Both the position numbers and the translations under genes were made by a program. A model generated the notes under the pieces. The model had not been told where the DNA came from, did no database searches, and saw only the letters and a list, made by a program, of their open reading frames with translations. Positions 9,891 to 64,000 of a stretch of DNA of 64,000 nt are shown here, piece after piece. The number at the start of each line of letters is the position of its first letter. The stretch's first letter is position 1. The DNA is from Candidatus Caccoplasma intestinavium (GTDB taxonomy: Bacteria; Bacteroidota; Bacteroidia; Bacteroidales; UBA11471). The DNA is taken from positions 24,119-88,118 of the forward strand of contig DVKT01000022.1 of assembly GCA_018715885.1 (NCBI GenBank). Direction: 5' to 3'.

Positions 9891-10397
9891 TCACGTTTTA
9901 TCGAGGGAATATGTCTCGAAAGTATTGTCGGAATAAAATACCATGATCTTAACGATTCGACGAGACTCCGCCTCTGATTTCACCGTAGAAGGTGCCATCG
10001 GATTTCTTATTGCATTATCCTTATTTTCAGAAAATAAAGTAGGGGATTGTAATAGCTCAGTAGGTAAATCCGTGGAATATTCGGGAGGAATACCACCATC
10101 GGTTTGTTTCACGTTATTCTCGGGAGAATAAATTCGGTCTAATGCCGCTTGTTGGTTCGATTTAAACGGACTCCCTTCTCCGAACATTAGCCACTCGATG
10201 GTTACCAAAGGATAGGCATCATGTATTTTCAAAATAAGTTCTTTACTGACCCCATTAGGACCATTGAGACATTGCGACAATGTAGAGCGATTGGTCTGTA
10301 TTTTTTGAGCAAAAGCCGCGTCATTGATTCTATAATATTGAATCAGCCACTTTATTCGTTCTTTCAAATCTCTGTCTTTCTGTTCCGATTCTGCCAT
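9891..10397 (-). CDS. Helix-turn-helix (XRE/Cro-like) domain protein
   Basis: NDAAFAQKIQTNRSTLSQCLNG..VSKELILKI is an HTH pattern. Start set at MAESEQ (10397) because a good promoter sits at 10445..10475, inside the longer track ORF. Confidence 0.6.
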   Translation of the reverse strand: MAESEQKDRDLKERIKWLIQYYRINDAAFAQKIQTNRSTLSQCLNGPNGVSKELILKIHDAYPLVTIEWLMFGEGSPFKSNQQAALDRIYSPENNVKQTDGGIPPEYSTDLPTELLQSPTLFSENKDNAIRNPMAPSTVKSEAESRRIVKIMVFYSDNTFETYSLDKT

Positions 10398-10444
10398 AAT
10401 CAAACATTCATAAAAATAAACTACACGAAATTTTTCGATGTTCA

Positions 10445-10475
10445 CAAAGATAGGCAAATTAGTTCACGAAACAAA
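10445..10475 (-). promoter_or_regulatory. Bacteroides-type promoter (TTTG-N19-TATCTTTG) for the HTH gene
   Basis: On the minus strand, TTTG lies at 10475..10472, followed by a 19-nt spacer and TATCTTTG at 10452..10445. This is 48 nt upstream of ATG 10397. Confidence 0.45.
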
Positions 10476-11132
10476 ATTCACCACCTAAAACAAATGTTTG
10501 TATTTGTGTATTCATTATCATAAACATCATCAAGAATATATTATCCAAACACTTCAATATACCTAATTATATAACACATAATCAAGTAATTGATTATACA
10601 AAGATAGATATAAGAATGATGAAATAAATGATTTAAGAGTTATCGAACAGTAACACCAATACGTTTGTTGAATAATAACTTTATTATATATAAATAATTA
10701 ACTGATAATAAATAATATATTTACACAATACAGCATTAAATAGCCATGCATTCAAGATTCTTTTGGAGTTTATTTTTCTGTTCATAGAAGATGTTTGTAC
10801 TTATGTACTTTTGCGGATAACAAACAAATATGTCTTTAAATCAAGTATATTAATTCAAAATAATGTATACAAGTAAATTGATTTGTGTTCATTATTATGA
10901 ATAAAAAATCGACAACTATTCTACATTACAATATTTGCGGAGCATAAGTCAATAAAAAAGATACAGGCAAAGGATTTTGAGTCAAAACGACAGAAATATG
11001 AGTACAAACAATTATTAATCAATGCAATAAATCGATAATGATATTGATAAACCCTATTTGACAGAAAAATTTTTCGGGACTATTTCCTAAAATTTTATTT
11101 TTTCGGCATCGACCGACCCATATCATAAAAAA

Positions 11133-48478: not shown

Positions 48479-50446
48479 TTATTTCTCACTTACAGATACT
48501 TCTTTTCGCATTTTTTCCAGTATATCTGTCTGCTCGACCCATAATTCCGTTAAAGCTTCGGCATCTTTCTTCAAAGTTCCGTGTTTCATACATAAATCTA
48601 TATCGGCCATACCCTCTGGGGTAGCCAGACGAGCTTCGATAGCAGAGATTTCTGTATCAAGTTTTGCCAAACGCTGTTCGGTATCGGCAACAGCACGTTC
48701 CTGACGTTTCAATTTTCTCTGCCACTCTTTACGGGCTTCAAACGACAACTTATTTTCTACGGTAGAAGTCGATGTCTTTTCAGCCGGAATTTGAGATCGA
48801 TCCTGTGATCTCGATTTTACTTCCAACTCTTTTAACGAAGCCATTTTTTTCGCCTCCAAAAAATCATATATCCCGCCTAAATGTTCTCGAACTTTCTGCT
48901 GCCCGAACTCGTACACTTTCGATACCAATCCATCGAGAAATTCCCTATCGTGCGATACGACGATAAGAGTCCCGTCAAAATCTTTCAGAGCCTGTTTCAG
49001 AACATCTTTTGTACGCATATCGAGATGGTTGGTTGGTTCGTCGAGAATCAACAGATTGACAGGTTCGAGCAACAAACGAATCATGGCAAGCCGCGTCTTT
49101 TCTCCTCCTGACAAAACTTTCACCTTTTTTTCCGAAGCCTCTCCACCAAACATAAACGCCCCCAATATATCTCGTATTTTGGTACGAATATCACCGACAG
49201 CCACTCTATCTATCGTATCGAATACCGTTACAGATTCGTCAAGAAGCTGAGCTTGATTCTGCGCAAAATATCCGATTTTCACATTGTGTCCTATTTTCAA
49301 CTCTCCATCATAAGGAATCTCTCCCATGATACATTTTACAAGTGTAGATTTTCCCTCGCCGTTCTTCCCGACAAAAGCGACTTTTTCTCCTCGCTTGATT
49401 GTAAAATCGGCATGTGCAAAAACAACATGGTCGCCATAACTTTTCCCCATATTCTTTGCAATAACAGGGTAATCACCCGACCGAGGAGCCGGAGGAAATC
49501 GTAAACGCAATCGGGAATTGTCTACTTCGTCGACCTCTATGCGTTCTATTTTTTCCAGTTGTTTGATACGCGACTGTACTTGCACCGACTTTGTGGCTTT
49601 ATAACGGAAACGTTCGATAAATGCCTCGGTATCCTGTATCTGCTTCTGCTGATTCTCAAAGGCCCGCTGCTGCTGTTCAAGACGCTCGGCCCGTAACTGC
49701 ACATATTTAGAATAATTCACCCGATAATCGTAAATATGCCCAAGAGAAATTTCGATCGTACGATTGGTTACATTATCGATAAACGCCCGGTCGTGTGAAA
49801 CCAATACAACGGCATTGGCCCTTGTGGAAAGAAACATTTCAAGCCACTGTATCGATTCTATGTCCAAATGGTTAGTAGGCTCGTCGAGCAACAATACATC
49901 GGGGCGTTGCAAAAGCAATTTGGCCAATTCGATACGCATACGCCAGCCGCCACTGAACTCGGAAGTCGATCGGTTAAAATCACTCCGCAAAAAACCAAGT
50001 CCCAATAGCGTTTTTTCTATTTCGGCCTGATAATTACCGTTGCCCGACAGTGCAAGTTGTTCGCTTACCTGAGAAATACGGTCGATCAATTCCTGATACG
50101 AATCACTTTCATAATCGGTACGTTCGGCCAATTCTGTATTCATTTGATCAAGACGTTCCTGCATCTCCTGAATATGAGAAAACGCCAATGCCGCCTCCTC
50201 GGTAACCGTACGGCTATCAGAAAGTTGCATTTGCTGCGGCAAATACCCAATGGTTATATCTTTGGGCATATTTACCGATCCTGCCGACGGTTGTTGAAGC
50301 CCCGCTATGATTTTGAGCATAGTAGACTTGCCGGCACCGTTTTTACCGACCAATGCTATACGGTCTTTTTTATTAATGACATACGTTATCTTATCGAGCA
50401 ATGTAAACCCACCGAATTCTACGGTCAGACCCTCTATTGAAATCAT
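48479..50446 (-). CDS. ABC-F family ATPase (two ABC domains, no TM domain)
   Basis: Two Walker A loops (GKNGAGKST, GKNGEGKST) and two LSGG signatures (FSGGWRMR, LSGGEKTR). Coiled-coil C-terminus. Start taken at MISIEG; 50482 is an alternative. Confidence 0.9.
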   Translation of the reverse strand: MISIEGLTVEFGGFTLLDKITYVINKKDRIALVGKNGAGKSTMLKIIAGLQQPSAGSVNMPKDITIGYLPQQMQLSDSRTVTEEAALAFSHIQEMQERLDQMNTELAERTDYESDSYQELIDRISQVSEQLALSGNGNYQAEIEKTLLGLGFLRSDFNRSTSEFSGGWRMRIELAKLLLQRPDVLLLDEPTNHLDIESIQWLEMFLSTRANAVVLVSHDRAFIDNVTNRTIEISLGHIYDYRVNYSKYVQLRAERLEQQQRAFENQQKQIQDTEAFIERFRYKATKSVQVQSRIKQLEKIERIEVDEVDNSRLRLRFPPAPRSGDYPVIAKNMGKSYGDHVVFAHADFTIKRGEKVAFVGKNGEGKSTLVKCIMGEIPYDGELKIGHNVKIGYFAQNQAQLLDESVTVFDTIDRVAVGDIRTKIRDILGAFMFGGEASEKKVKVLSGGEKTRLAMIRLLLEPVNLLILDEPTNHLDMRTKDVLKQALKDFDGTLIVVSHDREFLDGLVSKVYEFGQQKVREHLGGIYDFLEAKKMASLKELEVKSRSQDRSQIPAEKTSTSTVENKLSFEARKEWQRKLKRQERAVADTEQRLAKLDTEISAIEARLATPEGMADIDLCMKHGTLKKDAEALTELWVEQTDILEKMRKEVSVSEK

Positions 50447-50739
50447 AATAGTCGTGTTCTTAAATTTTGCCTGTTTCCACAATAGGCATTCTCAAAACAC
50501 GGCAAAGGTACACATTTTTACCCGAAGAGCATATATCCGTTTTCGTATTAAAAAAATCAGGGAAGAATCCTTACCAATTTTATGCAAAGTTACAAAAGAC
50601 CTCCGGAGAAAAGCTGCCTCATTCAGCCATTCCTCATACAATACCTTGCACACCATCTGTAAGGCAAAGTTGTAGCGCCATCTCCTCATGCGTCGCCAAC
50701 CCGTACTTTAAGGACACTCTCCCCATATTTAAAAGAGAT

Positions 50740-52683
50740 TTACCACCACTGTTGTATACCGTTTTTATAAATAAAGATCCGTTCTTCTGCCCCTCCGCTC
50801 AAATTATGTAATATATACAATTTTCCTGCCGGAACTTTTTGAAAATCGAGATAATAATCGGTAGCGGTCTTTTCTCCCACACATTGCCAAGAAAAACCGT
50901 CCCAATACTCCAAACGATAATGATTCCCCGGAATAATAAAGTTTGTATCGCTTCGGGGTACATAGCGTATCCGCGTCAATGTGTGATCATTTCTTTCACC
51001 CAAATCAAGTGCTACATACCCTTCTACTTTCTTATCTTTTCTAAAATAGGTACTATAATCACCATCGACAGCTTGTTCCCAACCTGTTTCTATTTCATTC
51101 TCCGGGACGCCAAATGCAAATCCGTTCAAAACCTGTTCTTCTTCCGTACCTTGTTTCCGACCATAAAAAACTATTTCTGCCAAATTACCCTCACGATTAT
51201 CATCAAATTTCATTCGAACATATCTATATGGACGAGTAACATTTAAGATAGAATCGACTATATCTTGTGCATCTCTATCCAAAACAGTCATTACAATTTC
51301 CGAGTCTGAAAAATCTGGATTGTCCGAGACCTCCACTGTTGCTCCTAAAAGAGCCTTCGAAAACGAGGTAATACGTGTAAATTTCGGATATTTACGAGTC
51401 AGATGCATATCGACAAAACCGGACGTATCGGATCGGATATATTCTATTCTGCCTTCCTTGTCGAGAATAAAGGGCGGTGTCGCTGGGACAAAGGTACTCT
51501 CATCGTAATAACCAGCCATATAGCAAACATCGCCTATCATATTTTTGAAATAGAACTTGCCCTCGGACACCTGCCCGTAATCGACCGGCTGCCACTCCTT
51601 GTTATCGAACACGCAGATTACGCCATACGGGAACGATCTATATCTATCAGTAACCTCAGGATCACCGGCAACATCTACATCGAATGTCGGAAAATAAAGA
51701 TGCGATACATCGATCCTATCCGACGCCAATAAATACCCGGGAACATACTCGGCAGCATTTTCATTCACATCTTGTATCTCAAAAGTCTGGCGAAATATTT
51801 TAGCCGGTTTATAGGTAAAAAAATACCGTTTTCTATCCAAGGCATCGAAAGGAAGAAACTGGCCGCTATCTTTCAAAACGACCACCCACTCGTGCCCCTG
51901 ACTACGGTTTCCCCAATGATTGACATAATCTATCGTTGCCGGAATCCCACATGCTCTCAAAGTAAGTACATAATATTCGCTCATGTGCCGGCACGATCCA
52001 CGTCGAGCCTGTTCCACCTTACTCCTCGGCAAAGAGATGGGATATCCCCACATCAATCGGCTATTTTTATACTTACGTACTCTATCGAACTCATGATACA
52101 ACTCCTTGATAAGACGGTCATCGTTGATAATAAGCGAATCTCGGATTCTCCGGAATTGCTCGAAATGCCTTTTACGATACGGTTCCAAAGGTTCATTTCC
52201 TATACGGTACGGCAACACGTACCGGCAAAAAAGGTCGAAATCTCGGGATATGAAATCCGGAACTGTCTGCCACGCCTCAAAAGCCGTCTCTATCTCCTCT
52301 ATCAAAAACTCTGCCGAAACGGTTTCCGTATCATACTGTCGTCCTAAATACAAAGGTTGCAGTCGTCCGTATTTGTGCAACAGATTCCACCAACATTGCT
52401 CGACAAGAGCAGGATCGGATTCGGAATTACCACTCCTATATAATCTTTCATATAGCGAAAATATTGTATCATAGCGTTCTATCTGTTTATCCCTATACCC
52501 AAATTTCCCGGGCATATTTTCTATTAAAAATTCCGCAGCCACCCTCTTCAAAGAATCATTGGCGTAAAAATCCAACACTTTTTCCACCTCATCATTTGGT
52601 AAAACCGGAGCTTCCAATACATTACAGCTCCATAAAATTTGCATCAAAAGCAAAATCGAAAAAATACATCTTGATATACTCAT
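50740..52683 (-). CDS. Transglutaminase-like cysteine-protease-fold lipoprotein with C-terminal discoidin (F5/8 type C)-like domains
   Basis: Signal MSISRCIFSILLLMQILWSC. Cys-His-Asp core (RGSCRHMSEY, GHEWVVV, FDALD). The C-terminal ...NLAEIVFYG is discoidin-like. Start moved from 52743 to 52683. Confidence 0.75.
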   Translation of the reverse strand: MSISRCIFSILLLMQILWSCNVLEAPVLPNDEVEKVLDFYANDSLKRVAAEFLIENMPGKFGYRDKQIERYDTIFSLYERLYRSGNSESDPALVEQCWWNLLHKYGRLQPLYLGRQYDTETVSAEFLIEEIETAFEAWQTVPDFISRDFDLFCRYVLPYRIGNEPLEPYRKRHFEQFRRIRDSLIINDDRLIKELYHEFDRVRKYKNSRLMWGYPISLPRSKVEQARRGSCRHMSEYYVLTLRACGIPATIDYVNHWGNRSQGHEWVVVLKDSGQFLPFDALDRKRYFFTYKPAKIFRQTFEIQDVNENAAEYVPGYLLASDRIDVSHLYFPTFDVDVAGDPEVTDRYRSFPYGVICVFDNKEWQPVDYGQVSEGKFYFKNMIGDVCYMAGYYDESTFVPATPPFILDKEGRIEYIRSDTSGFVDMHLTRKYPKFTRITSFSKALLGATVEVSDNPDFSDSEIVMTVLDRDAQDIVDSILNVTRPYRYVRMKFDDNREGNLAEIVFYGRKQGTEEEQVLNGFAFGVPENEIETGWEQAVDGDYSTYFRKDKKVEGYVALDLGERNDHTLTRIRYVPRSDTNFIIPGNHYRLEYWDGFSWQCVGEKTATDYYLDFQKVPAGKLYILHNLSGGAEERIFIYKNGIQQWW

Positions 52684-52708
52684 ATTCAATTCTCCTTTAA
52701 ACGTACGA

Positions 52709-54715
52709 TCAAATCGCCAATGACTTTTTATACCAAACTTCAAATAAAAAACGATATTGCTTCCATATCAAATCCTCTATATTTTTCTCCTCTGCCGGCT
52801 TATAATCATTTCCTGTAAAAATTCCCTGTGCCGTTACTCTTCCCATACGATTATATTGGTACGCCTTATCTACTAGACCTTTTCTCTCATATATACACGC
52901 CAAGTTAAACCACACTCTCGACAGATTTGGCAATTGTTCATTCGAGCTAAACAAATAAAATTCGGCCGTTTCAAAATCGCCAAGCTGCATAGCAATACTT
53001 CCATATTTAGCCAAATCAATAGGATTAGAAGGCTTCTGCGAAATATGTATCAACAAAAAATTTACAACTCGTTCAGTAAATTCTTTGTCGTAAAACCGAA
53101 GTTTTTCCCAATAGGTCGTTTTTAAAATATTCGGTTCTTGCAATACGACAGAAACAAACATTTCTATTGCTTTATCTACAAATCCTTTCTGCCGATATAT
53201 TTTATATAATTCCCATTTGAAAATAAGTTTATCAGGATAAACTGATATCCATTTTTCCAGTTCTTTTAAAAACGTATTTTCCGCTTCCTTAATGGAATAT
53301 AAGCGCACATAAAATGATAAGTGAATATCCAATGGGCTTTTCTTTAAGGCTTTTTCAAAATAACAAAGAGATCTTTCAACATTTTTATCCCGCAAAAAAA
53401 TTGCTCTGTTGACCATAAAAGAAAAACATTCCTTACTATTCCAGTTATAAAGAACCAGTCCAACCACATATGTCATCACTATACAAGGCAAGAAACAAAG
53501 TATGACTGGAAAATTCTTCTTCTCTCTTTCACATTCTACCCTTTTACTTTGTAAAAAAGCTACAAGGAAAAGGGTTGATAATTGTATAACCTTCGAATCG
53601 AACATTGTCGAAAAGGTCTGCTCCCTAACAAAAAAAGCCATTAAAAACAACGATATTATCCATAATTTCCGTTCTTTTCTCTTTATCAATAAAAAAACAA
53701 TAGACCAACAAAGTATCAAATATATACACACACCACAATAACCATACTCAATAAAAAGTTTTGAAATTGTATTGGGTGCATATGTAGTGTAAGAATCAAC
53801 CCTTTTATCACCAACCTGATAATAATCTTTCGCCAAAGTATAGTTATTCAGACCTACACCCCAAGGATATTTTTTCAAGATATCGGAGGTAATTGACATG
53901 GCCTTTACTCTCCCATCTATACTTCTTTGTTGAGAAACAGTCTTATTTATTTCAAAAACTTTTTTCGTTTCATGAGGAAATAAGAAAAAAATTCCTATTA
54001 TAAAAATAGCACAACTACCCAACAGAAATTTTTCCCGATCTACAAATAATCTCTTTCTTTCCAGTATAAACAAAACAATGGCAAACACCAGTGCCGATAA
54101 ATATATTCCTCTCGAAAATGACAATAACAATTGACACAATACCATACAGCCAGTTATAGCAGCAAGAGCCTTGACTTTTCGATTCTCAACATAAAAATAT
54201 GCGATTGCCAATATGCCCCCGAATAACCATTGTAAACTACTCCATACATTATTGGAAATTCCCAATGGAGCATACAAAAACCTGAAATCATACAACGAAG
54301 AAGAACCCGCATTATGGACAGTCTCGGAAAACAGATAATATATATAGAAAGATATAGTTAACAAAACAAAAATGCATACGGTAAATATAGAAAGAAGGTA
54401 ACCCGCAAATTTTCCATAATAGGTAAAAACATACCTCAAAATAAAGTAAGCAAATATATTTGTTATCAAATAAACGAGCATCACATTAGTATTTATCGTA
54501 TTAACTGATGGTAAAAAAAGCCCGTACGCTCCTAACAAAATAATACAAATATCACAAACACCCACTTTCAAAGGCCGTATAAATATGAATATCATTAAGC
54601 TAAAAACCAATAACAACAATTGTACAAAATACGTATCCTTGATATAAAAAAAATCAGCAAGGAACACAAATGTCAATAAACAGCAACTCGATATGCAAAC
54701 CAACTGTTTCATCAT
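52709..54715 (-). CDS. Polytopic Wzy_C (O-antigen ligase/polymerase-like) membrane protein with a C-terminal TPR-like domain
   Basis: 668 aa with more than 10 hydrophobic segments. Wzy_C-type loop LSFSRGIYLSALVF. The C-terminal ~250 aa are TPR-like helical repeats. ATGA overlap with the upstream gene. Confidence 0.6.
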   Translation of the reverse strand: MMKQLVCISSCCLLTFVFLADFFYIKDTYFVQLLLLVFSLMIFIFIRPLKVGVCDICIILLGAYGLFLPSVNTINTNVMLVYLITNIFAYFILRYVFTYYGKFAGYLLSIFTVCIFVLLTISFYIYYLFSETVHNAGSSSLYDFRFLYAPLGISNNVWSSLQWLFGGILAIAYFYVENRKVKALAAITGCMVLCQLLLSFSRGIYLSALVFAIVLFILERKRLFVDREKFLLGSCAIFIIGIFFLFPHETKKVFEINKTVSQQRSIDGRVKAMSITSDILKKYPWGVGLNNYTLAKDYYQVGDKRVDSYTTYAPNTISKLFIEYGYCGVCIYLILCWSIVFLLIKRKERKLWIISLFLMAFFVREQTFSTMFDSKVIQLSTLFLVAFLQSKRVECEREKKNFPVILCFLPCIVMTYVVGLVLYNWNSKECFSFMVNRAIFLRDKNVERSLCYFEKALKKSPLDIHLSFYVRLYSIKEAENTFLKELEKWISVYPDKLIFKWELYKIYRQKGFVDKAIEMFVSVVLQEPNILKTTYWEKLRFYDKEFTERVVNFLLIHISQKPSNPIDLAKYGSIAMQLGDFETAEFYLFSSNEQLPNLSRVWFNLACIYERKGLVDKAYQYNRMGRVTAQGIFTGNDYKPAEEKNIEDLIWKQYRFLFEVWYKKSLAI

Positions 54716-55920
54716 GATTCTTTATATACACGTATCTTCTTGTAAAATGGATATATGATCCGGTACAACATATAAAATGCCAATACCAAGAATAATAATT
54801 GAAGAACAATTTGTTGTACATTCGACCAGTCCGGAGTTTGGCGATATGACAATTCTCTTATCAATAGACTGAAACGATCAGGAAAAGTTTCATAAAACCG
54901 TACGAAAAACAAAGGTAAAACATAGAAAAAGTAAAATCCAAAAAACAAATTGACTACAACCGTATAAACTACTAATCCAGATTTTGCTCCCCGGGATAAC
55001 GCAAATAAATAGGGTCGATGCTCTACTTTTTTATTCTTTATTTTACTCAAAACATATCCAACCCATTCTGTCCCCTTTTTTCGTAAATTGGCAACCCCCA
55101 AAACATCTGACAAAATCCAATATCCGTCAAATTTGAAAAATGGATTCAATGTAATAACAAAATTCATATTCATCACCACAATTATATATTTGAAAAATGG
55201 GTAATGAAAGAAAAAATAAGCTATAAGAAACGGTATTAATAAAACCATCTGAAAATACACACCACCTATATTGATCAGAAAACGCTCCCTTCGAGTAAGT
55301 TTCCATGCCTGAGAAACATCGGTATAGAAAACAGGAATATTAAGATATAATCCGAAGCCAATATTTCCATGAGGAATCTGAAAATAATGACAAGCTGATG
55401 CATGCCCCAATTCATGTATCAACGACGAAAAAATAAAAAACAGGAATAATCCTATTACTGTATAGATACTCAGATCAACGTGTATAGTTTCAGTATAAAA
55501 TTCTGTAAAATGAATAAAATCCAGAATAATAAATATACCGACAATCGCCATCATCACACGGCTATCGAAAAGTATTTTCAGAGAAGAAGCGCACTTTCTT
55601 ACTTTCTCGGACGAAATCAAATCGTGCCGATAAAGAAATACTCCCTTTTTAGTCGAGGATACCTTTCCCTCCGCAATTTTCGACGACAGCATTTCCAAAA
55701 ATTCGATGACATCGTCTTTCGACGGATGTCCATCATGACTTTCTACATAAGTATCCACTGCCACTTCATCGCAACCATTTTCTTTGAGGTAATTCAGCAA
55801 CTCCGCCGCATCTTTTCCTATTTCAAAGAAATGATTATTAAATTCCATCAAAAAAGTTGTATGCAACGACGAAGTAGAAAAAGGTCCCACTGTTATACGC
55901 ATCAAATCAAAATTATCCAT
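54712..55920 (-). CDS. PqqD-like (RRE-like) N-terminal domain fused to an M50/site-2-protease-like intramembrane metalloprotease
   Basis: 402 aa. HELGH at residues 169-173 within a TM segment and NPFFKFDG at 259-266 (M50 NPxxxxDG). The N-terminal ~85 aa (FFEIGKDAAELLNYLKENG...DDVIEFLEMLSSK) resemble PqqD. Confidence 0.7.
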   Translation of the reverse strand: MDNFDLMRITVGPFSTSSLHTTFLMEFNNHFFEIGKDAAELLNYLKENGCDEVAVDTYVESHDGHPSKDDVIEFLEMLSSKIAEGKVSSTKKGVFLYRHDLISSEKVRKCASSLKILFDSRVMMAIVGIFIILDFIHFTEFYTETIHVDLSIYTVIGLFLFFIFSSLIHELGHASACHYFQIPHGNIGFGLYLNIPVFYTDVSQAWKLTRRERFLINIGGVYFQMVLLIPFLIAYFFFHYPFFKYIIVVMNMNFVITLNPFFKFDGYWILSDVLGVANLRKKGTEWVGYVLSKIKNKKVEHRPYLFALSRGAKSGLVVYTVVVNLFFGFYFFYVLPLFFVRFYETFPDRFSLLIRELSYRQTPDWSNVQQIVLQLLFLVLAFYMLYRIIYPFYKKIRVYKES

Positions 55921-55926
55921 AACCGA

Positions 55927-58239
55927 CTATTCTAGAATTGTTGACTGATTAATATCTTTTATTTCTGTACTATGGAATTTGTGTTTTTTCTTACCAAACG
56001 TAAAACGATAGTTGACCGTCAACTGGAACATATTGTCATAGGTGCGTTCATAACGCATCGCATTGATTTTTGAATATGACAATCTTTCATACCAACCTTT
56101 AAACGTTGTTTTCATAAAAGGACTCAATGTCCTGAATTGGATATTCCAACCTTTTATGGAGTAACCGACATTCAAATCAAAACCTCCCGACGATTGAATT
56201 TTCGTCCCAGATTTTTCTATATAAGAACGTTTAGGGGCATACCCTGCCGAAACCGACCAGCCTTTATGAAAAAAATAACAATCGATTGACACATTATACG
56301 AATCACCATATATCGTTTTCCAATATGCTAACTTTTCATGCTTATAGTTTCCATATACCTCAACCATCAATTTTTGGGGTATAATACTATATTGCAACTG
56401 TAATTCATAACTTTGCGATATAGAATTACCACTACTTCGCTGCTGACAGACAAACATATCTCTGTCAGCAGCGTATTCGATATTGGTATAAGGTGAACGG
56501 TAATCTCCTCCGAATATAAAACCCGCACCCACAAAGAATCGATCTACTACCCAAGTATAAATAGCTCCGGCTTGATATTTTCGCCAATCTTTCAACCCGG
56601 GATTTCCTACGGAAATTTCATAAATATTACGACGGTACTCCGTAGCCGTGAGGTTGGTAATACTGGGCGAAGAACCTGATGTTTCGGCAACTATCTGTAA
56701 CATATGTGTTTTATACATATATGTCATTTGCAATGATGGTACAAACATATGATCGAAATAGGTATCAGCACCTGTTTGGCTGAATGATAAACGTTCTGCT
56801 AATCGCAAACGCAAATTCAAACGATTTTTTACCTTGTAATTATAGGTAAGATATAATTGTGTGTTGCCTCGGTTCAAATATACGTCGGATACCACACCTT
56901 CACGCGCGTTGCGATCGTCGGTGCGGGTAAAGTCCTGATTGGCTTCTACATTAAATGACGAACGATTCTTGAATGTTTTGGTATAATTGATTTTAAACCG
57001 TCCATACCAACTCGATTCGTCGGTTGCATTATCATAGGCCGAAGTTATTACATCATCGATTCGATAAACATACCAACGTTTGTAGTCGTTATTACCATAA
57101 CTGCCATACCAATCCATACGCAAACGCTGGTCGTTTTTCAACGCACATTCATACCAAAACGACAATGCCGGAGACAAACCGGTCGAATGCCGGTTTTCTT
57201 GCATAGTATAGGTTTCGGGGGTATTGCTGAATGTCTGACTATTCCATACATCATTCTCTCTCAAGTTTTGATTCAAACGAAAAGAAGAATAGACACTCTG
57301 TTTTTTATCTTTATATATGTAATTGAAATAAGAACGCAAATTATTACTGTTTTTTTGTGAAGGTAGTTCTTGGGTCGTATTCACATTCGTTCCATCAGGA
57401 AAACCGTAAGCCGTTTCTGTATAATTTTCGCTATTGTAGTTACTAAAACAATCATAGCTGTCGGCCACAGAAAGGGCAAATTCCGACTTCCCTTGAAAAT
57501 ATTGAGCCGTCCCCCGAGCACTACCTGTAGGTTTATTTAAGTTATGCTGACCATTGACTGCAACCGTACCGGCATAGTCCCGCTCTTTCAGTACATAGTC
57601 AAACACAACATCAGCTTTGGGATAGTCGGTATTACCATTGGTATAGAAATCGATTCGCTTGATATCTCGCGGATTCAAATTGTTTACCTCGTCTTCGGTG
57701 GCTTCCCGTCCGTCAATGCAGAACAATATCTCTCGTCCCATATAAGTCGGTTTCTGGTCATATATGCCGATGCTCACACCGGGTATGGTCATTGTTCTCA
57801 ACAAGCTGTTTCGGTCATACACATGACGTAACTGTTCACGAGTAGGGTATATCATCGTTTTTTCAGCAGTGTGCACCGTATGATTACCCGTAACAATAAC
57901 CTCCTGTATGAGTGCAGAACTCCGGCTCAAAGTAATATCGCCAAGCCGCACCAACTTTTCTTCGGTAGGATTCAATATAAGGGTCATCTCTTTATAACCG
58001 AGATAGCCTATTTGCAGACGAAACGCCTGTTTCCCCCCCGATAGTTTCAATCTAAAATCTCCTTTACTGTCAGTTATCATACTAGCAACAAGAAGAGTAT
58101 CGGAAGTAAAACAACATACCGTTGCCCCTATCAGGTCATTCCGCTCACTATCCCGCACATGACCTTCCACCTCGATGGTCTGTGCCATAACAGATGGAAT
58201 AGTTGTAAATATGACGATAAAAAAAACGATATATTTCAT
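55927..58239 (-). CDS. TonB-dependent-receptor-like outer membrane beta-barrel (CarboxypepD_reg + plug-like + barrel)
   Basis: Signal MKYIVFFIVIFTTIPSVMAQ. VEGHVRDSERNDLIGATV...DSKGDFRL is carboxypeptidase-regulatory-like. A plug-like segment is present (LLRTMTIPGVSI...CIDGRE...IKRIDFY). The barrel is aromatic-rich and alternating. The track start at 58263 is an alternative. Confidence 0.8.
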   Translation of the reverse strand: MKYIVFFIVIFTTIPSVMAQTIEVEGHVRDSERNDLIGATVCCFTSDTLLVASMITDSKGDFRLKLSGGKQAFRLQIGYLGYKEMTLILNPTEEKLVRLGDITLSRSSALIQEVIVTGNHTVHTAEKTMIYPTREQLRHVYDRNSLLRTMTIPGVSIGIYDQKPTYMGREILFCIDGREATEDEVNNLNPRDIKRIDFYTNGNTDYPKADVVFDYVLKERDYAGTVAVNGQHNLNKPTGSARGTAQYFQGKSEFALSVADSYDCFSNYNSENYTETAYGFPDGTNVNTTQELPSQKNSNNLRSYFNYIYKDKKQSVYSSFRLNQNLRENDVWNSQTFSNTPETYTMQENRHSTGLSPALSFWYECALKNDQRLRMDWYGSYGNNDYKRWYVYRIDDVITSAYDNATDESSWYGRFKINYTKTFKNRSSFNVEANQDFTRTDDRNAREGVVSDVYLNRGNTQLYLTYNYKVKNRLNLRLRLAERLSFSQTGADTYFDHMFVPSLQMTYMYKTHMLQIVAETSGSSPSITNLTATEYRRNIYEISVGNPGLKDWRKYQAGAIYTWVVDRFFVGAGFIFGGDYRSPYTNIEYAADRDMFVCQQRSSGNSISQSYELQLQYSIIPQKLMVEVYGNYKHEKLAYWKTIYGDSYNVSIDCYFFHKGWSVSAGYAPKRSYIEKSGTKIQSSGGFDLNVGYSIKGWNIQFRTLSPFMKTTFKGWYERLSYSKINAMRYERTYDNMFQLTVNYRFTFGKKKHKFHSTEIKDINQSTILE

Positions 58240-58347
58240 TATATTATCATATAATGTATACAAAAATTGAGGGTAATCAAGATTTATACTGAATATAATA
58301 CCATATATAATTTAAAAATATAGATCTCTCACACCCTCAACTTTTAT

Positions 58348-58569
58348 TTATAAATCAAATTCTTGGCAATATTCTGAACAGTATTGCTTACATTTTCCAT
58401 TACATATACAAATGCATTCATCCGAAGAATCAGAACTATCCATATTCAACAACGCCGCTATTGCTAACGGGTCTGTTTCCAATCGTTGTTCCAGCTCATC
58501 TAAATAAAAAGCTGGCAACTCTTCGTTCAGAGAACGAAGTTCATTTTTCTTCTCTTTCATAATTTTCAT
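58348..58569 (-). CDS. Candidate RiPP precursor peptide: acidic helical leader plus Cys-rich CXXX-repeat core
   Basis: 73 aa. All 6 Cys lie at residues 52, 54, 56, 60, 64 and 68 (CICICNGKCKQYCSEYCQEFDL). The leader is ...PAFYLDELEQRLETDPLAIAALLNMDSSDSSDE. Starts 15 nt after the radical SAM gene stop. Confidence 0.75.
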   Translation of the reverse strand: MKIMKEKKNELRSLNEELPAFYLDELEQRLETDPLAIAALLNMDSSDSSDECICICNGKCKQYCSEYCQEFDL

Positions 58570-58584
58570 TTTTAAGTTAATAAA

Positions 58585-59925
58585 TCAGTTATTTAATTGC
58601 AGATCTGCATACGCTTTATTGACAGCATAACGCACAATATCTTCCATACGAAGACAATGATGTCGTTTCAGATTATGAGCCGGACATCCGCATCCGCATA
58701 ACAAAGCATATTTGCACACGGTACAAGCCTGAATCTCTGATATATGCGCCTTATGCCAATTGTCGAGAGGTTCCTGACTCCAAGAAACACCGCCAGCACT
58801 CGCATAATGACCTATGCAGTGTTCGGGCCGGCCTACGACTTCCCAGCAAGGATAGATATTACCATATGGATCAAAAACAAAGCTTCCAGTCTGCGCTCTA
58901 CAAAAAATAGGATGAAAAGACAGAGGTTTTTTCCTCATAATGGCTTGATAAAGTTTATCAAACACGCCATAATCCTGATATTCAAATTGAGATTTAGAAA
59001 CACTATGCTTTTGAATAAATTCTCGTTGCGTCAAGTAATGATAAGTATTGTCCGTTTCGGATTCAGAATAATCAACCAACAATGCCGAATTCATTGAAAA
59101 AAGCGGATTTTCGACATACTGTAAACGCTCGAAAATCGCTTGTAACTCTTTCAAATCTTCGATATTCTCCCTATCTGTATTAACCCGTACAGAAACCCGA
59201 ACACCTCTCTTCAAAGCCAAACCGATATTATCCAAAATACGGTCGAATGTAGGGAAACCCTGGCAATGTATGCGACGACTATTATGGTGGTCACGAACAC
59301 CATCTACCGTGATTTGCAAAAAAGCGATGCCGTCGGGTGAAAGTAAGTCTTCATAAGCAACCAAATCATAACCATTTGTAATAGCAGAAAATGTAAAACC
59401 TAACCTTTTGCCTCTATCAATAATATAAGATATGATTTTTCTGTTTTGTACTAAAAGAGGTTCCCCTCCATATAATGTAATATTTTTAAAAAAATACTTT
59501 TCGTTAGGTTCTATATAAAAAATTGCTTCAAAAGCTTTATCTACCATCTCAGGAGTAAATACCATTTTATCCCTTCCTACTCCTTTCTCAAAACAATATG
59601 GGCAACGGAAATTACAATCGTAAGTAATGACAAATGTAAAACCTTTTTTCAACAACATATCTCTACGGAATAAAATATCGGCCATGTATGCAACATAATC
59701 ATACTCTTCTTGCTCCGCTTTTTCAGTAATATATCCGCGTTGTATCAATGCAGACCATGTTTTTGCAGAATAAGGAAATTCACTCTCTGTAAACGTATCG
59801 TGACTATTGATAAAAGAAACGATTTTATCATTCACTAAATCAATAGCTCCTGTATAACCGTGAATCAACATATGATCATTACTACCATCGACCTTTACAT
59901 CGGTCATATAAGAAGACTTTCTCAT
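58585..59925 (-). CDS. Radical SAM/SPASM-domain peptide-modifying enzyme (putative maturase of the adjacent peptide)
   Basis: 446 aa. CX3CX2C at C104/C108/C111 (YDCNFRCPYCF). C-terminal auxiliary-cluster Cys pattern (CRAQTGSFVFDPYGNIYPC...C...CTVCKYALLCGCGC). ~95-aa N-terminal extension. Confidence 0.9.
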   Translation of the reverse strand: MRKSSYMTDVKVDGSNDHMLIHGYTGAIDLVNDKIVSFINSHDTFTESEFPYSAKTWSALIQRGYITEKAEQEEYDYVAYMADILFRRDMLLKKGFTFVITYDCNFRCPYCFEKGVGRDKMVFTPEMVDKAFEAIFYIEPNEKYFFKNITLYGGEPLLVQNRKIISYIIDRGKRLGFTFSAITNGYDLVAYEDLLSPDGIAFLQITVDGVRDHHNSRRIHCQGFPTFDRILDNIGLALKRGVRVSVRVNTDRENIEDLKELQAIFERLQYVENPLFSMNSALLVDYSESETDNTYHYLTQREFIQKHSVSKSQFEYQDYGVFDKLYQAIMRKKPLSFHPIFCRAQTGSFVFDPYGNIYPCWEVVGRPEHCIGHYASAGGVSWSQEPLDNWHKAHISEIQACTVCKYALLCGCGCPAHNLKRHHCLRMEDIVRYAVNKAYADLQLNN

Positions 59926-59962
59926 GATATTAAATTTTTACATTAATCAATAATATTTTTTG

Positions 59963-59993
59963 CAAATATAGAAAATTTATTTTATAAAACAAA
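59963..59993 (-). promoter_or_regulatory. Bacteroides-type promoter (TTTG-N19-TATATTTG) for the radical SAM/peptide operon
   Basis: On the minus strand, TTTG lies at 59993..59990, followed by a 19-nt spacer and TATATTTG at 59970..59963. This is 38 nt upstream of ATG 59925. Confidence 0.45.
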
Positions 59994-60280
59994 TAATTTA
60001 TCATCAATTATCTTTCAAATATAAAAAACAAGCATAAATAAATTTCAGAATATTTATACACACAAAATAATACATTTATTATTGTTGTATATAAACTATT
60101 GCATTTCCAATAAGCATACAACTGATGTTATTCGATTTTCTATAATCTACTCGATAAAGGCTTCTCATTCTTTGAAAAATTTATCACCCGTTTTCCGCAA
60201 CGATAAAAAATATACAGAAATATTTTCTTCCACACTTCCCCTCGTGCTATCTTTGTCGTAATCTTATAAAATTATCTGTC

Positions 60281-61468
60281 ATGGAGAAGACATGGAGATG
60301 GTTTGGTCCCAACGATCCGATTACGCTCGACATGTTACGGCAAATCGGTGTGGAAGGTATCGTTACCGCCCTGCACGATGTTCCTAACGGAGATGTCTGG
60401 GAAATCGAGAATATATCCCGCAGGAAAGCCTATATCGAATCGCACGGCCTGCGATGGTCGGTCGTAGAAAGCCTGCCCGTATGCGAAGCCGTCAAATATG
60501 GCGGAGCAGAAAGAGACCGGCTCATCGAGAACTATAAAAACAGTCTGGCCAATTTGGGTCGATGCGGTATAAAAACCGTATGCTACAACTTTATGCCCGT
60601 CATCGACTGGATACGCACCGACCTGCAACACCCGTGGGCCGACGGTACCACATCGCTCTACTTCGACCGGGCGCGTTTCGCCTACTTCGACCTTCACATT
60701 CTCGAACGCCCCGGAGCAGAAAAAGATTATCCCGATCCGCTCCTCGCGAAAGTCGAAGAGATGGGTAAAGTCATCAGCGAGAAAGAGAAAAACGACCTCA
60801 TCGAGACAATCATCGTAAAGACACAAGGATTTGTCAACGGGAATATCAAAGAGGGAGATGAAAATCCGGTAAAAATATTCAAAAAACTATTGTCGCACTA
60901 CGAGGGCATTGACCGTGCAGCCCTCCGCGAAAACATGCGGTACTTCTTGTCGGCCATCATGCCCGTGTGCGAAACATTCGGCATAAATATGTGCGTGCAC
61001 CCCGACGACCCGCCTTTCCAAGTACTGGGTCTTCCCCGCATCGTAACCGACGAAGCAGACATCGCATGGATACTCCATGCCGTCGACAACCCGCACAACG
61101 GACTCACTTTTTGCGCCGGGTCGCTCAGTGCCGGATCGCAAAACGACACACGGGAACTGGCCCGGAAATTTGCCAAACGAACACACTTCGTGCACCTGCG
61201 GAGTACAGATGTATTGCCTAACGGAAACTTCATCGAAAGCTCCCACCTATCGGGGCGCGGACATCTCATCGACTTGATACGTGTTTTTGAAAAAGAGAAT
61301 CCGCACCTTCCTATGCGCGTCGATCATGGACGCACCATGTTGGGGGACGAAAATCAGAACTACAATCCCGGATATTCTTTTCACGGTCGCATGCTGGCAC
61401 TGGCGCAAGTCGAAGGTATGATGGCCGTTGTGAAAGACGAACTACAAAAACAAATTTACATACCATGA
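60281..61468 (+). CDS. uxuA: Mannonate dehydratase
   Basis: 395 aa. MEKTWRWFGPNDPITL is a hallmark UxuA N-terminus. A TATCTTTG box at 60248..60255 lies 25 nt upstream. Confidence 0.95.
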   Translation: MEKTWRWFGPNDPITLDMLRQIGVEGIVTALHDVPNGDVWEIENISRRKAYIESHGLRWSVVESLPVCEAVKYGGAERDRLIENYKNSLANLGRCGIKTVCYNFMPVIDWIRTDLQHPWADGTTSLYFDRARFAYFDLHILERPGAEKDYPDPLLAKVEEMGKVISEKEKNDLIETIIVKTQGFVNGNIKEGDENPVKIFKKLLSHYEGIDRAALRENMRYFLSAIMPVCETFGINMCVHPDDPPFQVLGLPRIVTDEADIAWILHAVDNPHNGLTFCAGSLSAGSQNDTRELARKFAKRTHFVHLRSTDVLPNGNFIESSHLSGRGHLIDLIRVFEKENPHLPMRVDHGRTMLGDENQNYNPGYSFHGRMLALAQVEGMMAVVKDELQKQIYIP

Positions 61469-64000
61469 AACGTACTTATCTTTTTTACCCATTATTCGTT
61501 ATTCTCTGCCTGTCTCTCTCCCTGCCGGTGAGTGGCAGTGTGCGGGAAAAGTATAACTTCAATCCGCAATGGCTTTTGCATGTAGGCGATATGCACGGAG
61601 CCGAAAAAGTAAAATTTCCCGATAAGGATTGGAAAAAAATCACCCTTCCGCGAGCCTTCAACGAAGACGAAGCATTCAAAGTTCCCATAAAGGAAATGAC
61701 CGACACTGTCGCGTGGTACCGGAAACACTTCAAACTGCCGAAATCGGCCAAAGGGAAGAAGGTATTCATCGAGTTCGAGGGTGTGCGGCAAGGCGCCGAT
61801 TTCTACCTCAACGGCAAACACATAGGACTGCACGAGAATGGTGTCATGGCCGTAGGCTTCGACCTCACCCCTTACCTCAACTTCAACGGGGAAAACGTGA
61901 TCGCCGTGCGGGTCGACAACGACTGGCAATACCGAGAGAGAGCAACCGGCAGCCGGTTCCAATGGAACGACCAGAACTTCAATGCCAACTACGGTGGGAT
62001 AACCAAAAACGTGTGGCTGCACATCACCGATAAATTATATCAGACATTACCGCTATACAGCAACCTGCAAACTACCGGAGTCTATGTATATGCCTCCGAT
62101 ATAAAAGTAAAAAGCCGGAAAGCGATGATACACGCCGAATCCCAAATCCGTAATGAGCACGACAAACCGATGACCGTCGGCTATGAAGTAGACTTATATG
62201 ACTACGAAGGCAAGCGGGTAAGCTCTTTCTCGGGTACGCCCATAACCGTAAATCCGCAAGAAACCGCAATGCTGGAAGCCTATGCCCCATTGGAGAATAT
62301 CCATTTTTGGAGCTGGGGATACGGCTATCTCTATCATGTCGTAACCCGTCTCATCGTCGACAATAAATCCATCGACGAAGTCGTTACGACGACCGGATTC
62401 CGCAAGACCCGATTTGGAAGCGGGAAAGTATGGCTCAATGACCGTGTCATACAACTCAAAGGCTATGCGCAACGCTCGAGCAACGAATGGCCGGGCGTGG
62501 GCATATCGGTTCCGCCCTGGCTGAGCGACTATTCCAACGGATTGATGATCGAACACAATGCCAACCTTTTCCGCTGGATGCACATCACCCCGCAAAAACA
62601 GGATATCGAGTCCTGCGACAGGGTCGGTGTCATACAGATGCTTCCGGCCGGAGATGCCGAAAAAGATGTGGAGGGACGGCGTTGGGAACAACGTAAAGAA
62701 CTGATGCGCGACGTCATCATCTATACACGCAACAACCCGAGTATCCTCTTTTACGAATGCGGGAACGAATCCATCAGCCGGGAGCACATGATAGAGATGA
62801 TCGCGATACGCGACCAGTACGACCCGCATGGAGGTCGGGCTATCGGTTCACGCGAAATGCTCGACATCAGAGAGGCTGAATACGGAGGAGAAATGCTTTA
62901 CATCAACAAAAGCGAACACCACCCGATGATACAGACCGAATACTGCCGGGACGAAGGTCTGCGCAAATATTGGGACGAGTACAGTTATCCCTATCACAAA
63001 CAGGGAGACGGACCGCTGTATAAAGGGCAAGATGCCTCGGCCTATAATCAGAATCAGGATATGCTTGCCATAGAATTTGTCCGCCGCTGGTACGATATGT
63101 GGCGCGAACGTCCCGGTACAGGACGCAGGGTGAATTCAGGCGGCGCGAAAATCATCTTTTCCGATACGCAAACTCACGGGCGCAGCGAGATGAACTACCG
63201 TGTGAGCGGTGTCGTCGATGCGTTCAGAATACCCAAAGACGGATATTTCGCACACAAAGTCATGTGGGACAGCTGGGTCGACATCGAAAACCACCATACG
63301 CATATCATCGGGCACTGGAACTACACCCCCGACACCCGAAAGCCCGTATATGTTGTATCGTCGGGCGATAAGGTGGAATTATTCGTCAATGGAAAATCAA
63401 AAGGATTCGGCCGGCAGGAATACCGTTTTCTCTTCACGTTCGACTCCATACAATGGGAAAAAGGCTGCATCGAAGCTGTCTCTTACCTCGAAGATGGCAC
63501 AGAAGTAAGCCGGAGCTCCATAAAAACCATCGGAGACCCGAAAGAATTAAAATTGTCGTTGATACAAGGGCCTAACGGAACTTATGCTGACGGAGCGGAC
63601 TTGGCCCTCGTACAAATCGAAGTTGTCGATGAGAACGGCGACCGCTGCCCGTTGGCCAACAATATGGTAAAATTCGATTTGCAAGGTCCGGCCGAATGGC
63701 GCGGCGGTATAGCTCAGGGAAAAGACAATTATGTCCTATCGAAAGAGCTTCCCGTCGAATGCGGCATTACACGTGTCATGATACGGACAACCGATAAATC
63801 GGGAAAAATAACCCTGAAAGCCGAAGCCGAAGGATTGCCTTCGAATGAAATAACTTTTGAAACAAAACCCGTCAAAGTCAGAAACGGACTCTCCTCGTAC
63901 TTCCCGGCACAAAATCTCCCCAGCCGTTTTGACCGTGGAGAGACTCCCGCCACCCCGTCTTACAGAGACTCCAAAGTCGATGTCAAAGTAGACAGTATCA
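61465..64000 (+). CDS. Glycoside hydrolase family 2 protein, secreted (3' end beyond the window)
   Basis: Not in the track because it is open-ended. Manual translation in frame from ATG 61465 is open to 64000. It has a signal peptide, a GH2 sugar-binding-type N-terminus (WYRKHFKLP..., GVRQGADFYLNGKHIG), YECGNES (acid/base region) and IQTEYC (nucleophile region). ATGA overlap with the uxuA stop. Confidence 0.85.
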   Translation, partial: MKRTYLFYPLFVILCLSLSLPVSGSVREKYNFNPQWLLHVGDMHGAEKVKFPDKDWKKITLPRAFNEDEAFKVPIKEMTDTVAWYRKHFKLPKSAKGKKVFIEFEGVRQGADFYLNGKHIGLHENGVMAVGFDLTPYLNFNGENVIAVRVDNDWQYRERATGSRFQWNDQNFNANYGGITKNVWLHITDKLYQTLPLYSNLQTTGVYVYASDIKVKSRKAMIHAESQIRNEHDKPMTVGYEVDLYDYEGKRVSSFSGTPITVNPQETAMLEAYAPLENIHFWSWGYGYLYHVVTRLIVDNKSIDEVVTTTGFRKTRFGSGKVWLNDRVIQLKGYAQRSSNEWPGVGISVPPWLSDYSNGLMIEHNANLFRWMHITPQKQDIESCDRVGVIQMLPAGDAEKDVEGRRWEQRKELMRDVIIYTRNNPSILFYECGNESISREHMIEMIAIRDQYDPHGGRAIGSREMLDIREAEYGGEMLYINKSEHHPMIQTEYCRDEGLRKYWDEYSYPYHKQGDGPLYKGQDASAYNQNQDMLAIEFVRRWYDMWRERPGTGRRVNSGGAKIIFSDTQTHGRSEMNYRVSGVVDAFRIPKDGYFAHKVMWDSWVDIENHHTHIIGHWNYTPDTRKPVYVVSSGDKVELFVNGKSKGFGRQEYRFLFTFDSIQWEKGCIEAVSYLEDGTEVSRSSIKTIGDPKELKLSLIQGPNGTYADGADLALVQIEVVDENGDRCPLANNMVKFDLQGPAEWRGGIAQGKDNYVLSKELPVECGITRVMIRTTDKSGKITLKAEAEGLPSNEITFETKPVKVRNGLSSYFPAQNLPSRFDRGETPATPSYRDSKVDVKVDSI

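Follow-up and report, generated by a model that had tools for sequence, protein, structure and literature searches.

We analysed a stretch of 64,000 nucleotides (nt), hereafter the window, from contig DVKT01000022.1 of the Candidatus Caccoplasma intestinavium assembly GCA_018715885.1. Its minus strand carries a gene for a 446-amino-acid (aa) radical S-adenosylmethionine (rSAM) enzyme with a SPASM domain, and the start ATG (58569) of a 73-codon open reading frame (ORF) lies 15 nt past the stop codon of that gene (58585..59925). Four genes for envelope proteins follow. The small ORF translates as MKIMKEKKNELRSLNEELPAFYLDELEQRLETDPLAIAALLNMDSSDSSDECICICNGKCKQYCSEYCQEFDL, and an in-frame second ATG at 58560 yields a 70-aa form, which is the one annotated by NCBI. 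All six Cys are found within residues 52-68 with the spacing C-x-C-x-C-x3-C-x3-C-x3-C. An earlier interpretation made from the letters of the DNA (the sequence-only reading) had described this ORF as a leader-plus-core peptide. Its translation, coordinates, strand and 15-nt gap to the maturase stop agree exactly with ours, and the six Cys in the C-terminal part with a CXXX periodicity from C56 were reproduced from the sequence. We conclude that the ORF is a genuine conserved precursor of a RiPP, a peptide made by the ribosome and modified after translation.

The ORF is small and Bacteroidota do not have strong Shine-Dalgarno signals, so that translation is unreadable from sequence and an untranslated chance ORF in an intergenic spacer has to be considered. 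In 10^6 shuffles of the peptide, six Cys fell inside 17 residues in 0.15 % of cases and three successive CX3 gaps arose in 0.06 %. Across the 1185 six-frame stop-to-stop segments of the window, CX3CX3CX3C is found in one other string only (CTPQCRRICTRGC, position 48122 on the minus strand, near an ABC-F gene at 48479..50482), which is probably a chance match. In the window ORF list, nothing of 40 aa or longer overlaps the precursor on the opposite strand. Conservation is a stronger test of reality than either the shuffling or the string count. The 792 homologues described below, the purifying selection on the leader at the codon level, the conserved position and the gene calls in NCBI, JGI and ENA records all argue against a chance ORF, which we regard as close to negligible. 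The earlier claim that the ORF is not noise is therefore borne out by its conservation, by the selection on its leader and by the shuffles.

A search with the window peptide as single sequence returned 25 small proteins, whose alignment displays a near-invariant N-terminal block followed by a variable Cys-rich tail. A family profile built from 38 members extended this set to 792 proteins at E <= 0.01, a lower bound for the size of the family. The members that carry a name are all called 'hypothetical protein', and the named carriers are Bacteroides caecimuris, Parabacteroides timonensis, Prevotella, Palleniella muris and Butyricimonas. Scanning the window peptide and the 38 members against Pfam and NCBIfam gave nothing significant, none of the members from the profile search has a Pfam domain, and we found no description of the leader family in Pfam, NCBIfam or the searchable literature. 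The exact window peptide is recorded on 368 contigs and its 70-aa form on at least 1000, the latter including HIT39024.1 (Candidatus Caccoplasma intestinavium) and CDA22089.1 (Bacteroides sp. CAG:144). The rSAM protein of the window is 100 % identical to one from Candidatus Caccoplasma intestinavium, a gut member of the Bacteroidaceae. CDA22089.1 is labelled '2-hydroxy-3-keto-5-methylthiopentenyl-1-phosphate phosphatase', an evident annotation error.

We aligned the leaders of 124 family members, anchored on LExRLE, and obtained the consensus (E)L-x-S-L-N-x-E-L-[PST]-x-[FL]-x-[LV]-[EQ]-E-L-E-Q-R-L-E-T-D-P-L-A-[VI]-G-G-L-L. T32, D33, P34 and L35 are identical in 121-124 of the 124 members, and N15, L26, E27, R29, L30 and E31 are also invariant or nearly so. 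The leader is free of Cys in 120 members. The conserved block at residues 10-41 is presumed to be the recognition sequence for the RiPP recognition element (RRE) domain of the enzyme. A spacer of variable length, in which Ser makes up 21 %, Asp 13.5 % and Thr 8 % across the family, comes after this block, and a leader/core boundary drawn at E51|C52 is arbitrary.

Comparison with the closest divergent copy (L084) reveals how selection acts on the two parts. Residues 7-51 differ by five synonymous and no non-synonymous changes, while residues 52-73 differ by four non-synonymous changes and one synonymous change, none of which alters a Cys. The leader is under purifying selection and the core diversifies with its Cys positions fixed, as expected of a leader and a core.

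The sequence-only reading had likened FYLD in the leader to the FNLD recognition box. This likeness did not hold, as the family reads F-x-[LV]-[EQ], with Y22 variable and D24 replaced by E or Q in 105 of 124 members. Pfam and NCBIfam scans found neither LanB nor LanC in the window cassette. Because the second position is variable and LanB/LanC are absent, the analogy amounts to a loose hydrophobic-x-hydrophobic-acidic pattern, and we rejected a lanthipeptide-type FNLD leader.

Positions 38-39, after the conserved block, are GG in 108 of 124 members and AA in the window peptide. The GG, together with the common coupling of GG leaders with peptide export in Bacteroidales (PMC10352776), would suit an unmodified, disulfide-stabilised bacteriocin with a double-glycine leader (bacteroidetocin-like) whose adjacent rSAM enzyme acts elsewhere. 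This explanation is disfavoured by the AA of the window peptide and by the cassette, where Pfam and NCBIfam scans and the gene content of related loci reveal no peptidase-containing (C39) ABC transporter. Cys counts in the family are often odd, with exactly three Cys in 48 of the 124 members, and the adjacency of rSAM gene and peptide is kept from Bacteroidaceae to Melioribacteraceae. Double-glycine leaders carry a pattern of hydrophobic residues at -4, -7 and -12, unlike the A, D and Q found at these positions from the GG. We consider such a bacteriocin highly improbable.

The cores are hypervariable except for their Cys, of which there are 2-10 per core (n = 124). Usually 3-5 residues separate the last of them from the C-terminus. 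The subfamily of the window peptide has CX3 repeats with 6-10 Cys, for example CDHYCDIHCGDDCSDYCGEYCQHYC, and close relatives lengthen the CXXX repeat to x7 and x8. Other subfamilies use CX5 three times, CxxCx5C, CX3C, WCLWDNxC or, in Prevotella, CX6 repeats. The CX5, CX6, CxxCx5C and two-Cys cores share the leader and the kind of enzyme with the window subfamily. The proposed CXXX periodicity is therefore kept and even lengthened in close relatives and is not a property of the whole family.

Some precursors depart from this organisation. Several Bacteroides-type precursors (P0020, P0022, P0023, P0025) have frameshifted cores with the tail ..LLVTFIAMTIVQS.., and one precursor (L106, 2535..2678) has a premature stop after the spacer. 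At two loci (L106, L107) the rSAM, protease and transglutaminase genes are short remnants only. These disrupted precursors and cassettes may be decaying cassettes or assembly errors. At some loci (L145 495..1174; P0146 and P0172, whose contigs share a length of 8763 nt) two different precursors with the same leader stand in tandem, as in multi-precursor RiPP clusters.

The neighbouring enzyme has the features of a peptide maturase. It matches PF04055 (E=8e-16) and exceeds the cut-off of the SPASM model TIGR04085 (52.7 bits vs 27). The rSAM motif CX3CX2C (C104x3C108x2C111) and the seven SPASM Cys with G355 (C342...G355x4C360, C401x2C404x5C410x3C414, C424) are invariant in 17 homologues. An AlphaFold2 (AF2) model of the enzyme has a mean predicted local distance difference test score (pLDDT) of 83.9. 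Residues 7-90, at a pLDDT of about 90 or higher, are modelled as strands E7-11, E17-22 and E28-32 followed by helices H33-41, H54-63 and H71-90, and this beta3-alpha3 order suggests an RRE-like N-terminal domain.

The nearest curated families all mature Cys-rich peptides. The enzyme scores 129.3 bits against CefB, 117.5 against TIGR04463, 110.6 against PapB, 102.5 against Clo7bot and 69.9 against the SCIFF maturase, where the cut-offs are 340-600. As these scores are far under all the cut-offs, the enzyme belongs to none of these maturase families. The closest match in the Protein Data Bank (PDB) is the thioether synthase CteB, both by sequence (phmmer E=3.7e-11) and by fold (5wgg, Foldseek E=1e-15, TM 0.67), the latter over the full length including the N-terminal domain. 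We consider it very probable that the window peptide is a true substrate of this rSAM enzyme. Among more distant relatives, Selenomonadaceae enzymes at 30 % identity adjoin peptides (L006 6198..6449, L005 5782..5970) that have a short Cys core, e.g. ..AVAGGWDCGCDNDCNCYNDF, behind a different, Nif11-like leader with AGG at its end. The enzyme clade is thus apparently paired with unrelated leaders.

The association of peptide and enzyme was addressed from both sides. A contig scan based on the enzyme and blind to the peptide gave six close loci among the matches listed, the other 74 being distant rSAM enzymes with the generic CNFRCPYC pattern. Leader-bearing Cys-rich ORFs are found directly 3' of the rSAM gene in a Prevotella metagenome-assembled genome (MAG; L001), in L002 and L003, and in a Melioribacteraceae MAG (L007), where the peptide has the leader EELEERLEL and the core CVGYVDCIGKCDSIC. 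The homologue check proposed in the sequence-only reading was thereby carried out: small ORFs after related rSAM genes share the leader, and the Cys periodicity is kept in close relatives.

A search based on the leader gave 67 metagenome loci, mostly from human gut among those stating a source. Counting only loci whose flanks reach far enough, the rSAM gene is directly upstream of the peptide in 41 of 50, a gene for the 770-aa outer-membrane protein is downstream of it in 38 of 40, the HExxH membrane protease gene in 28 of 31 and the Wzy_C/TPR gene in 22 of 25. A transglutaminase-like gene either precedes the rSAM gene or closes the cassette in 11 of 12 loci with long flanks. The precursor is almost always transcriptionally coupled to an RRE-like rSAM/SPASM gene and four more conserved genes travel along (Table 1). 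With its conserved leader, hypervariable Cys core and adjacent rSAM gene, the peptide is the precursor tied to the upstream maturase that had been proposed.

Table 1. Features of the cassette on the minus strand, in window coordinates.
Feature	Coordinates	Strand	Basis and remarks
Candidate Bacteroides-type promoter -7 element, TATATTTG	59963..59970	-	Consensus match only
Radical-SAM/SPASM peptide maturase, 446 aa	58585..59925	-	RRE-like region ~7-90, TIM barrel, 7-Cys SPASM
Precursor peptide ORF, 73 aa	58348..58569	-	ORF list, homologue searches, codon comparison with L084
Conserved leader block, residues 10-41, ELRSLNEELPAFYLDELEQRLETDPLAIAALL	58447..58542	-	124-member alignment
Acidic Ser/Asp-rich spacer, residues 42-51, NMDSSDSSDE	58417..58446	-	Family spacers alike in composition
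Cys core, residues 52-73, CICICNGKCKQYCSEYCQEFDL	58351..58416	-	Six Cys; +3 residue N/K/Y/Y/F for five of them
Long hairpin with A-tract and U-tract	58260..58347	-	Minimum free energy -34 kcal/mol, z = -5.5; adjoins the precursor stop codon
Outer-membrane protein, 770 aa from ATG	55927..58239	-	Signal peptide, CarboxypepD_reg N-terminal extension, beta-barrel
Polytopic HExxH (HELGH) intramembrane metalloprotease	54712..55920	-	daptide_HExxH and YydH/LiaK matches
Membrane protein with Wzy_C/WaaL-like (O-antigen-ligase) domain and C-terminal TPR	52709..54715	-	Wzy_C E=1.4e-12
Transglutaminase-core protein (papain-like Cys protease fold) with CBM6/CBM32-like domains	50740..52743	-	Profile and Pfam matches

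Deviating loci were also seen. Partial or decayed copies of the cassette are found in L087, L102 and L106/L107. In L116/L117 an orphan precursor (7959..8213) and a barrel gene (8234..10546) stand among SusC-like and pectin-degrading genes without nearby rSAM, protease, Wzy or transglutaminase genes, and in L141 (168..5205) the precursor lies between two barrel genes. The rSAM, protease and Wzy genes of the window (within 52000..60000) have a GC content of 31-38 %, compared to 41.7 % for the whole window and about 50 % on the uxuA side (60300..64000). The AT-rich composition hints that the cassette may be an accessory or horizontally acquired island.

The rSAM start codon follows the candidate -7 element at a distance of about 38 nt, and a TTTG stands about 21 nt upstream of the element. 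A scan with the consensus found a Bacteroides -7 element neither in the gap from the rSAM gene to the peptide nor in that from the peptide to the outer-membrane protein gene. The consensus TAnnTTTG occurs 84 times in the window vs 60.6 expected, and no shuffle reached 84, an excess consistent with DNA of Bacteroidota origin. A scan for sigma-70 promoters and terminators gave chance-level counts, and its models cover neither Bacteroides promoters nor long-loop hairpins.

In about 18 of 23 related loci, among them L084, L086, L088, L094, L105, L122 and L144, strong hairpins come after the stop codon of the precursor. Their sequences are unrelated, so that structure is conserved and sequence is not. 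Leaky terminators follow the structural genes in many bacteriocin operons, and the post-precursor hairpin resembles them. It is probably a partial terminator or attenuator, or an mRNA stabiliser, that would set the ratio of the precursor to the downstream products.

Within the cores, the residue three positions after each Cys is much more strongly biased across the family than the residue at any other offset. Statistics of Cys offsets were computed on 62 dereplicated cores with less than 50 % identity to one another, using 500 within-core shuffles as control. The Kullback-Leibler (KL) divergence at Cys+3 is 0.57 bits, compared to at most 0.23 at other offsets and at most 0.175 in the shuffles. 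Y, F, H, W, K, Q, N, D, R, L or M occupy Cys+3 in 86 % of cases vs a background of 52 %, and G, A, S, P, V, T or I in 11 % vs 41 %. The bias is also present in CX5, CX6 and terminal units and is therefore more than a property of the position that precedes the next Cys. The window peptide follows the rule at five of its six Cys (N57, K59, Y63, Y67, F71). The sequence-only reading had proposed partners at fixed offsets; the family-wide bias at Cys+3 supports that part and indicates a C-x-x-Z unit, as a statistical inference on related sequences. The pattern suggests that one ring could form per unit between Cys(i) and residue i+3.

The kind of system is already known, namely an rSAM/SPASM-modified Cys-rich RiPP, and curated precedents with periodic Cys are the CXXX-repeat targets, the Cys-every-fifth peptides and PapA. 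Tests for membership in the curated Cys-peptide maturase families all failed on score.

CteB/CteA of Clostridium thermocellum (thermocellin, SCIFF-type, 5wgg/5why) is the best match for the window enzyme by sequence and fold, and shares its layout of RRE, rSAM barrel and 7-Cys SPASM domain beside a small precursor with a Cys-rich C-terminal core. The two differ in that the identity over the fold alignment is 18 %, the leaders are unrelated and the window system comes from a Gram-negative Bacteroidales with envelope accessory genes. We know of no SCIFF locus with such accessory genes. Membership in SCIFF (TIGR03974) was rejected, with the maturase at 69.9 bits vs a cut-off of 425 and the peptide matching no NCBIfam model. 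CteB makes Cys-Thr gamma-thioethers (PMC10352776).

The ranthipeptide system PapB/PapA (freyrasin) is similar in its repeated, evenly spaced Cys core, each Cys of which is thought to pair at a fixed short offset; PapB links Cys to Asp/Glu (PMC9413430). Unlike PapA, the window family favours Y/H/K/Q/F/N/D at +3 and not Asp at +4. The window peptide contains a single CX3D (C68-D72), which is absent from its closest relative P0002. A PapB-type ranthipeptide (NF047865) was rejected on this +3 bias and on score (110.6 bits vs a cut-off of 340).

The CXXX-repeat rSAM targets (enzyme TIGR04115; peptides TIGR04117 Syntroph_Cxxx and TIGR04118 AC3_0185) also place a Cys at every fourth residue beside an rSAM maturase, and are the only curated families named for the CXXX pattern. 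The pattern itself is present in the window peptide as CNGK-CKQY-CSEY-C and in relatives with up to eight Cys. Membership was rejected, since the enzyme scores 56.7 bits vs a cut-off of 350 for TIGR04115 and the window peptide is unmatched; one family member each comes near E ~0.07 (best E=0.065) against TIGR04117 and TIGR04118. To our knowledge, these systems are chemically uncharacterised.

CefB/CefA ('Cys-every-fifth', NF038107) is the top-scoring curated family, with a near-full-length alignment of the enzyme and a periodic-Cys peptide. Its period differs from the four of the window peptide and the six or seven of the sister subfamilies, and membership was rejected on this period and on the score of 129.3 bits vs a cut-off of 600. 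In sactipeptides, which typically have a hairpin layout, the acceptors lie in a long C-terminal half. That layout is absent here because the last Cys is 3-5 residues from the end.

The epipeptide (YydF/EpeX) and daptide pathways likewise encode an HExxH intramembrane metalloprotease beside an rSAM-modified or other RiPP precursor. They differ in their chemistry, which is epimerisation or formation of a C-terminal amine with no evident link to Cys-rich cores. A survey of Bacteroidales RiPPs described nine clusters, seven of which encode a peptidase-containing ABC transporter (PMC10352776). None of these nine matches the window cassette, whose accessory gene set differs from theirs.

The accessory proteins point to the cell envelope. 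The 770-aa protein has an N-terminal extension of the SusC/RagA type in a profile search and its homologues match the barrel models OMP_b-brl_3 and TonB_dep_Rec, by which it is classed as TonB-receptor-like. No Plug domain or TonB box was found in it with confidence, and one weak Plug match was seen among 16 homologues. The HExxH protein scores under the cut-off in both of its matches (daptide_HExxH, 85 bits vs 300; YydH/LiaK, 46.5 bits vs 225). By analogy, it is a candidate leader peptidase and possibly the exporter, as the EpeP protease has been proposed to act on the epipeptide in both roles (PMC10885120). The Wzy_C/TPR protein has profile matches to WaaL (7tpg, E=3e-6) and to OGT-like TPR repeats. 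The transglutaminase-like protein probably starts at ATG 52683, which would give a lipoprotein signal (..LLMQILWSC). Searching the PDB with the single sequences of the four accessory proteins gave weak matches or none, and profiles did better for three of them.

After the rSAM gene, the TonB-receptor-like barrel with its SusC-type extension is the most constant neighbour of the peptide (38/40 loci). One could therefore imagine that the Cys/His/Asp-rich peptide, modified or not, is a metal binder or signal that is released and then retaken via the barrel of its own cluster, and is not an antibiotic. Methanobactin with its receptor MbnT is the model for such release and reuptake. The CX3-subfamily cores are rich in His, Asp and Cys, e.g. 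CDVHCDDHCSEHCGRFHC, and C-x-x-H/D/C are common chelating pairs, but most of the residues found at +3 (Y, K, Q, N, F) bind metals poorly and many members have only two Cys and no His. The cassette also has no metal-related gene, and the sparse Plug and TonB-box signal of the barrel speaks against reuptake. We judge this explanation improbable.

Taken together, these results lead us to explain the ORF as a RiPP precursor for the neighbouring rSAM enzyme that receives Cys thioethers and is handled in the envelope, a reading to which we assign a probability of about 0.7. A thioether is the most economical modification because nothing but Cys is constant among the cores and the closest enzymes have Cys-rich peptides as substrates, and on these sequence grounds we lean towards it. 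That the acceptor would be residue i+3 is a more tentative proposal, and we rate it as somewhat doubtful. In this mechanism, the rSAM gene and the precursor would be co-transcribed from a promoter upstream of the rSAM gene, with the hairpin attenuating read-through to the downstream genes. The RRE-like domain would bind the conserved leader block (residues ~10-41) and the enzyme would move along the core one Cys at a time. Each Cys thiolate would sit on the free coordination site of an auxiliary cluster that the 7-Cys SPASM domain implies, and the 5'-deoxyadenosyl radical would take a hydrogen from the residue three positions downstream, closing a thioether and a four-residue ring. The product would be a string of C-x-x-Z rings (C54-N57, C56-K59, C60-Y63, C64-Y67, C68-F71). 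The HExxH intramembrane protease would then remove the leader and may aid export, as proposed for EpeP, and the TonB-receptor-like barrel, the WaaL-like/TPR protein and the transglutaminase-like lipoprotein would act on the product or move it in the cell envelope.

Several observations weigh against this explanation. The enzyme is so far under every maturase cut-off that no characterised enzyme can lend it a reaction. C-C and C-O links, epimerised residues and cyclopropylglycine (cf. TigE) are further products of SPASM enzymes, and the fold ranking after CteB includes TigE (fourth), anSME, SuiB, ChlB and SkfB. With matches of such mixed chemistry, the fold alone leaves the chemistry unfixed. 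Within the window peptide, C52 has Ile at +3, and the C-x-C spacing would crowd overlapping i/i+3 rings at C52/C54/C56. The Cys+3 bias could come from folding or from metal binding (C-x-x-H/D/C) instead, and since family members are related, the counts are non-independent even after dereplication. The peptide is found without an adjacent rSAM gene in L116 and L117 and with a decayed one in L106 and L107. Finally, TonB-dependent-receptor-like barrels normally import, which is a poor fit to a simple secreted bacteriocin.

The peptide might accordingly be a true substrate of the enzyme that undergoes another chemistry, such as C-C or C-O cross-links at the aromatic, His or Lys residues at +3, epimerisation, or an anSME-like oxidation of Cys, with the Cys serving as cluster-binding handles or forming disulfides later. 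The absence of the enzyme from every curated maturase family, the different reactions catalysed by TigE, anSME, SuiB and ChlB and the abundance at +3 of Y, H, K and F, classic partners in rSAM C-C cross-links, are in its favour. Yet Cys, in 2-10 copies, are the only invariant feature of the core, the enzymes nearest to it in sequence and in structure are maturases that form Cys thioethers or act on Cys-rich peptides, and seven rather than eight SPASM Cys would fit a site for the substrate thiolate as in CteB. We consider another chemistry unlikely.

If thioether formation at i+3 is the rule, the cassette could represent a new class of RiPPs from gut Bacteroidales, with each Cys joined by the rSAM enzyme to its +3 residue to give a chain of four-residue rings of freely varying number and spacing (CX3, CX5, CX6). 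The product would then pass to an envelope machine not seen with other RiPPs, made up of the M50-like protease, the TonB-receptor-like barrel, the WaaL-like ligase with TPR and the surface transglutaminase/CBM lipoprotein. We offer this class as a speculative extension that is more likely wrong than right. Given the WaaL-like protein and the Ser/Thr/Asp-rich spacer, the peptide may be joined to a glycan or to the cell surface. Alternatively, it may be re-imported as a metal carrier or signal, given the receptor-like barrel.

According to a 2023 mining survey of the Bacteroidales, class I bacteriocins (RiPPs) of this order still elude identification and characterisation (PMC10352776). Bacteroidales dominate the human gut, and the family described here numbers 792 sequence clusters or more, with members in Bacteroides, Parabacteroides, Prevotella, Butyricimonas and Palleniella. 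It is widespread and, with cultured carrier strains in existence, experimentally tractable, and it is not conceptually unexpected. Its cores form a natural library that obeys a simple rule (Cys plus a large residue at +3), a resource for enzyme engineering if the proposed chemistry is true. From the conserved envelope genes one could learn how modified peptides are processed and moved in Gram-negative anaerobes. An antibiotic, signal or metal carrier as the product would be relevant to competition and colonisation in the gut.

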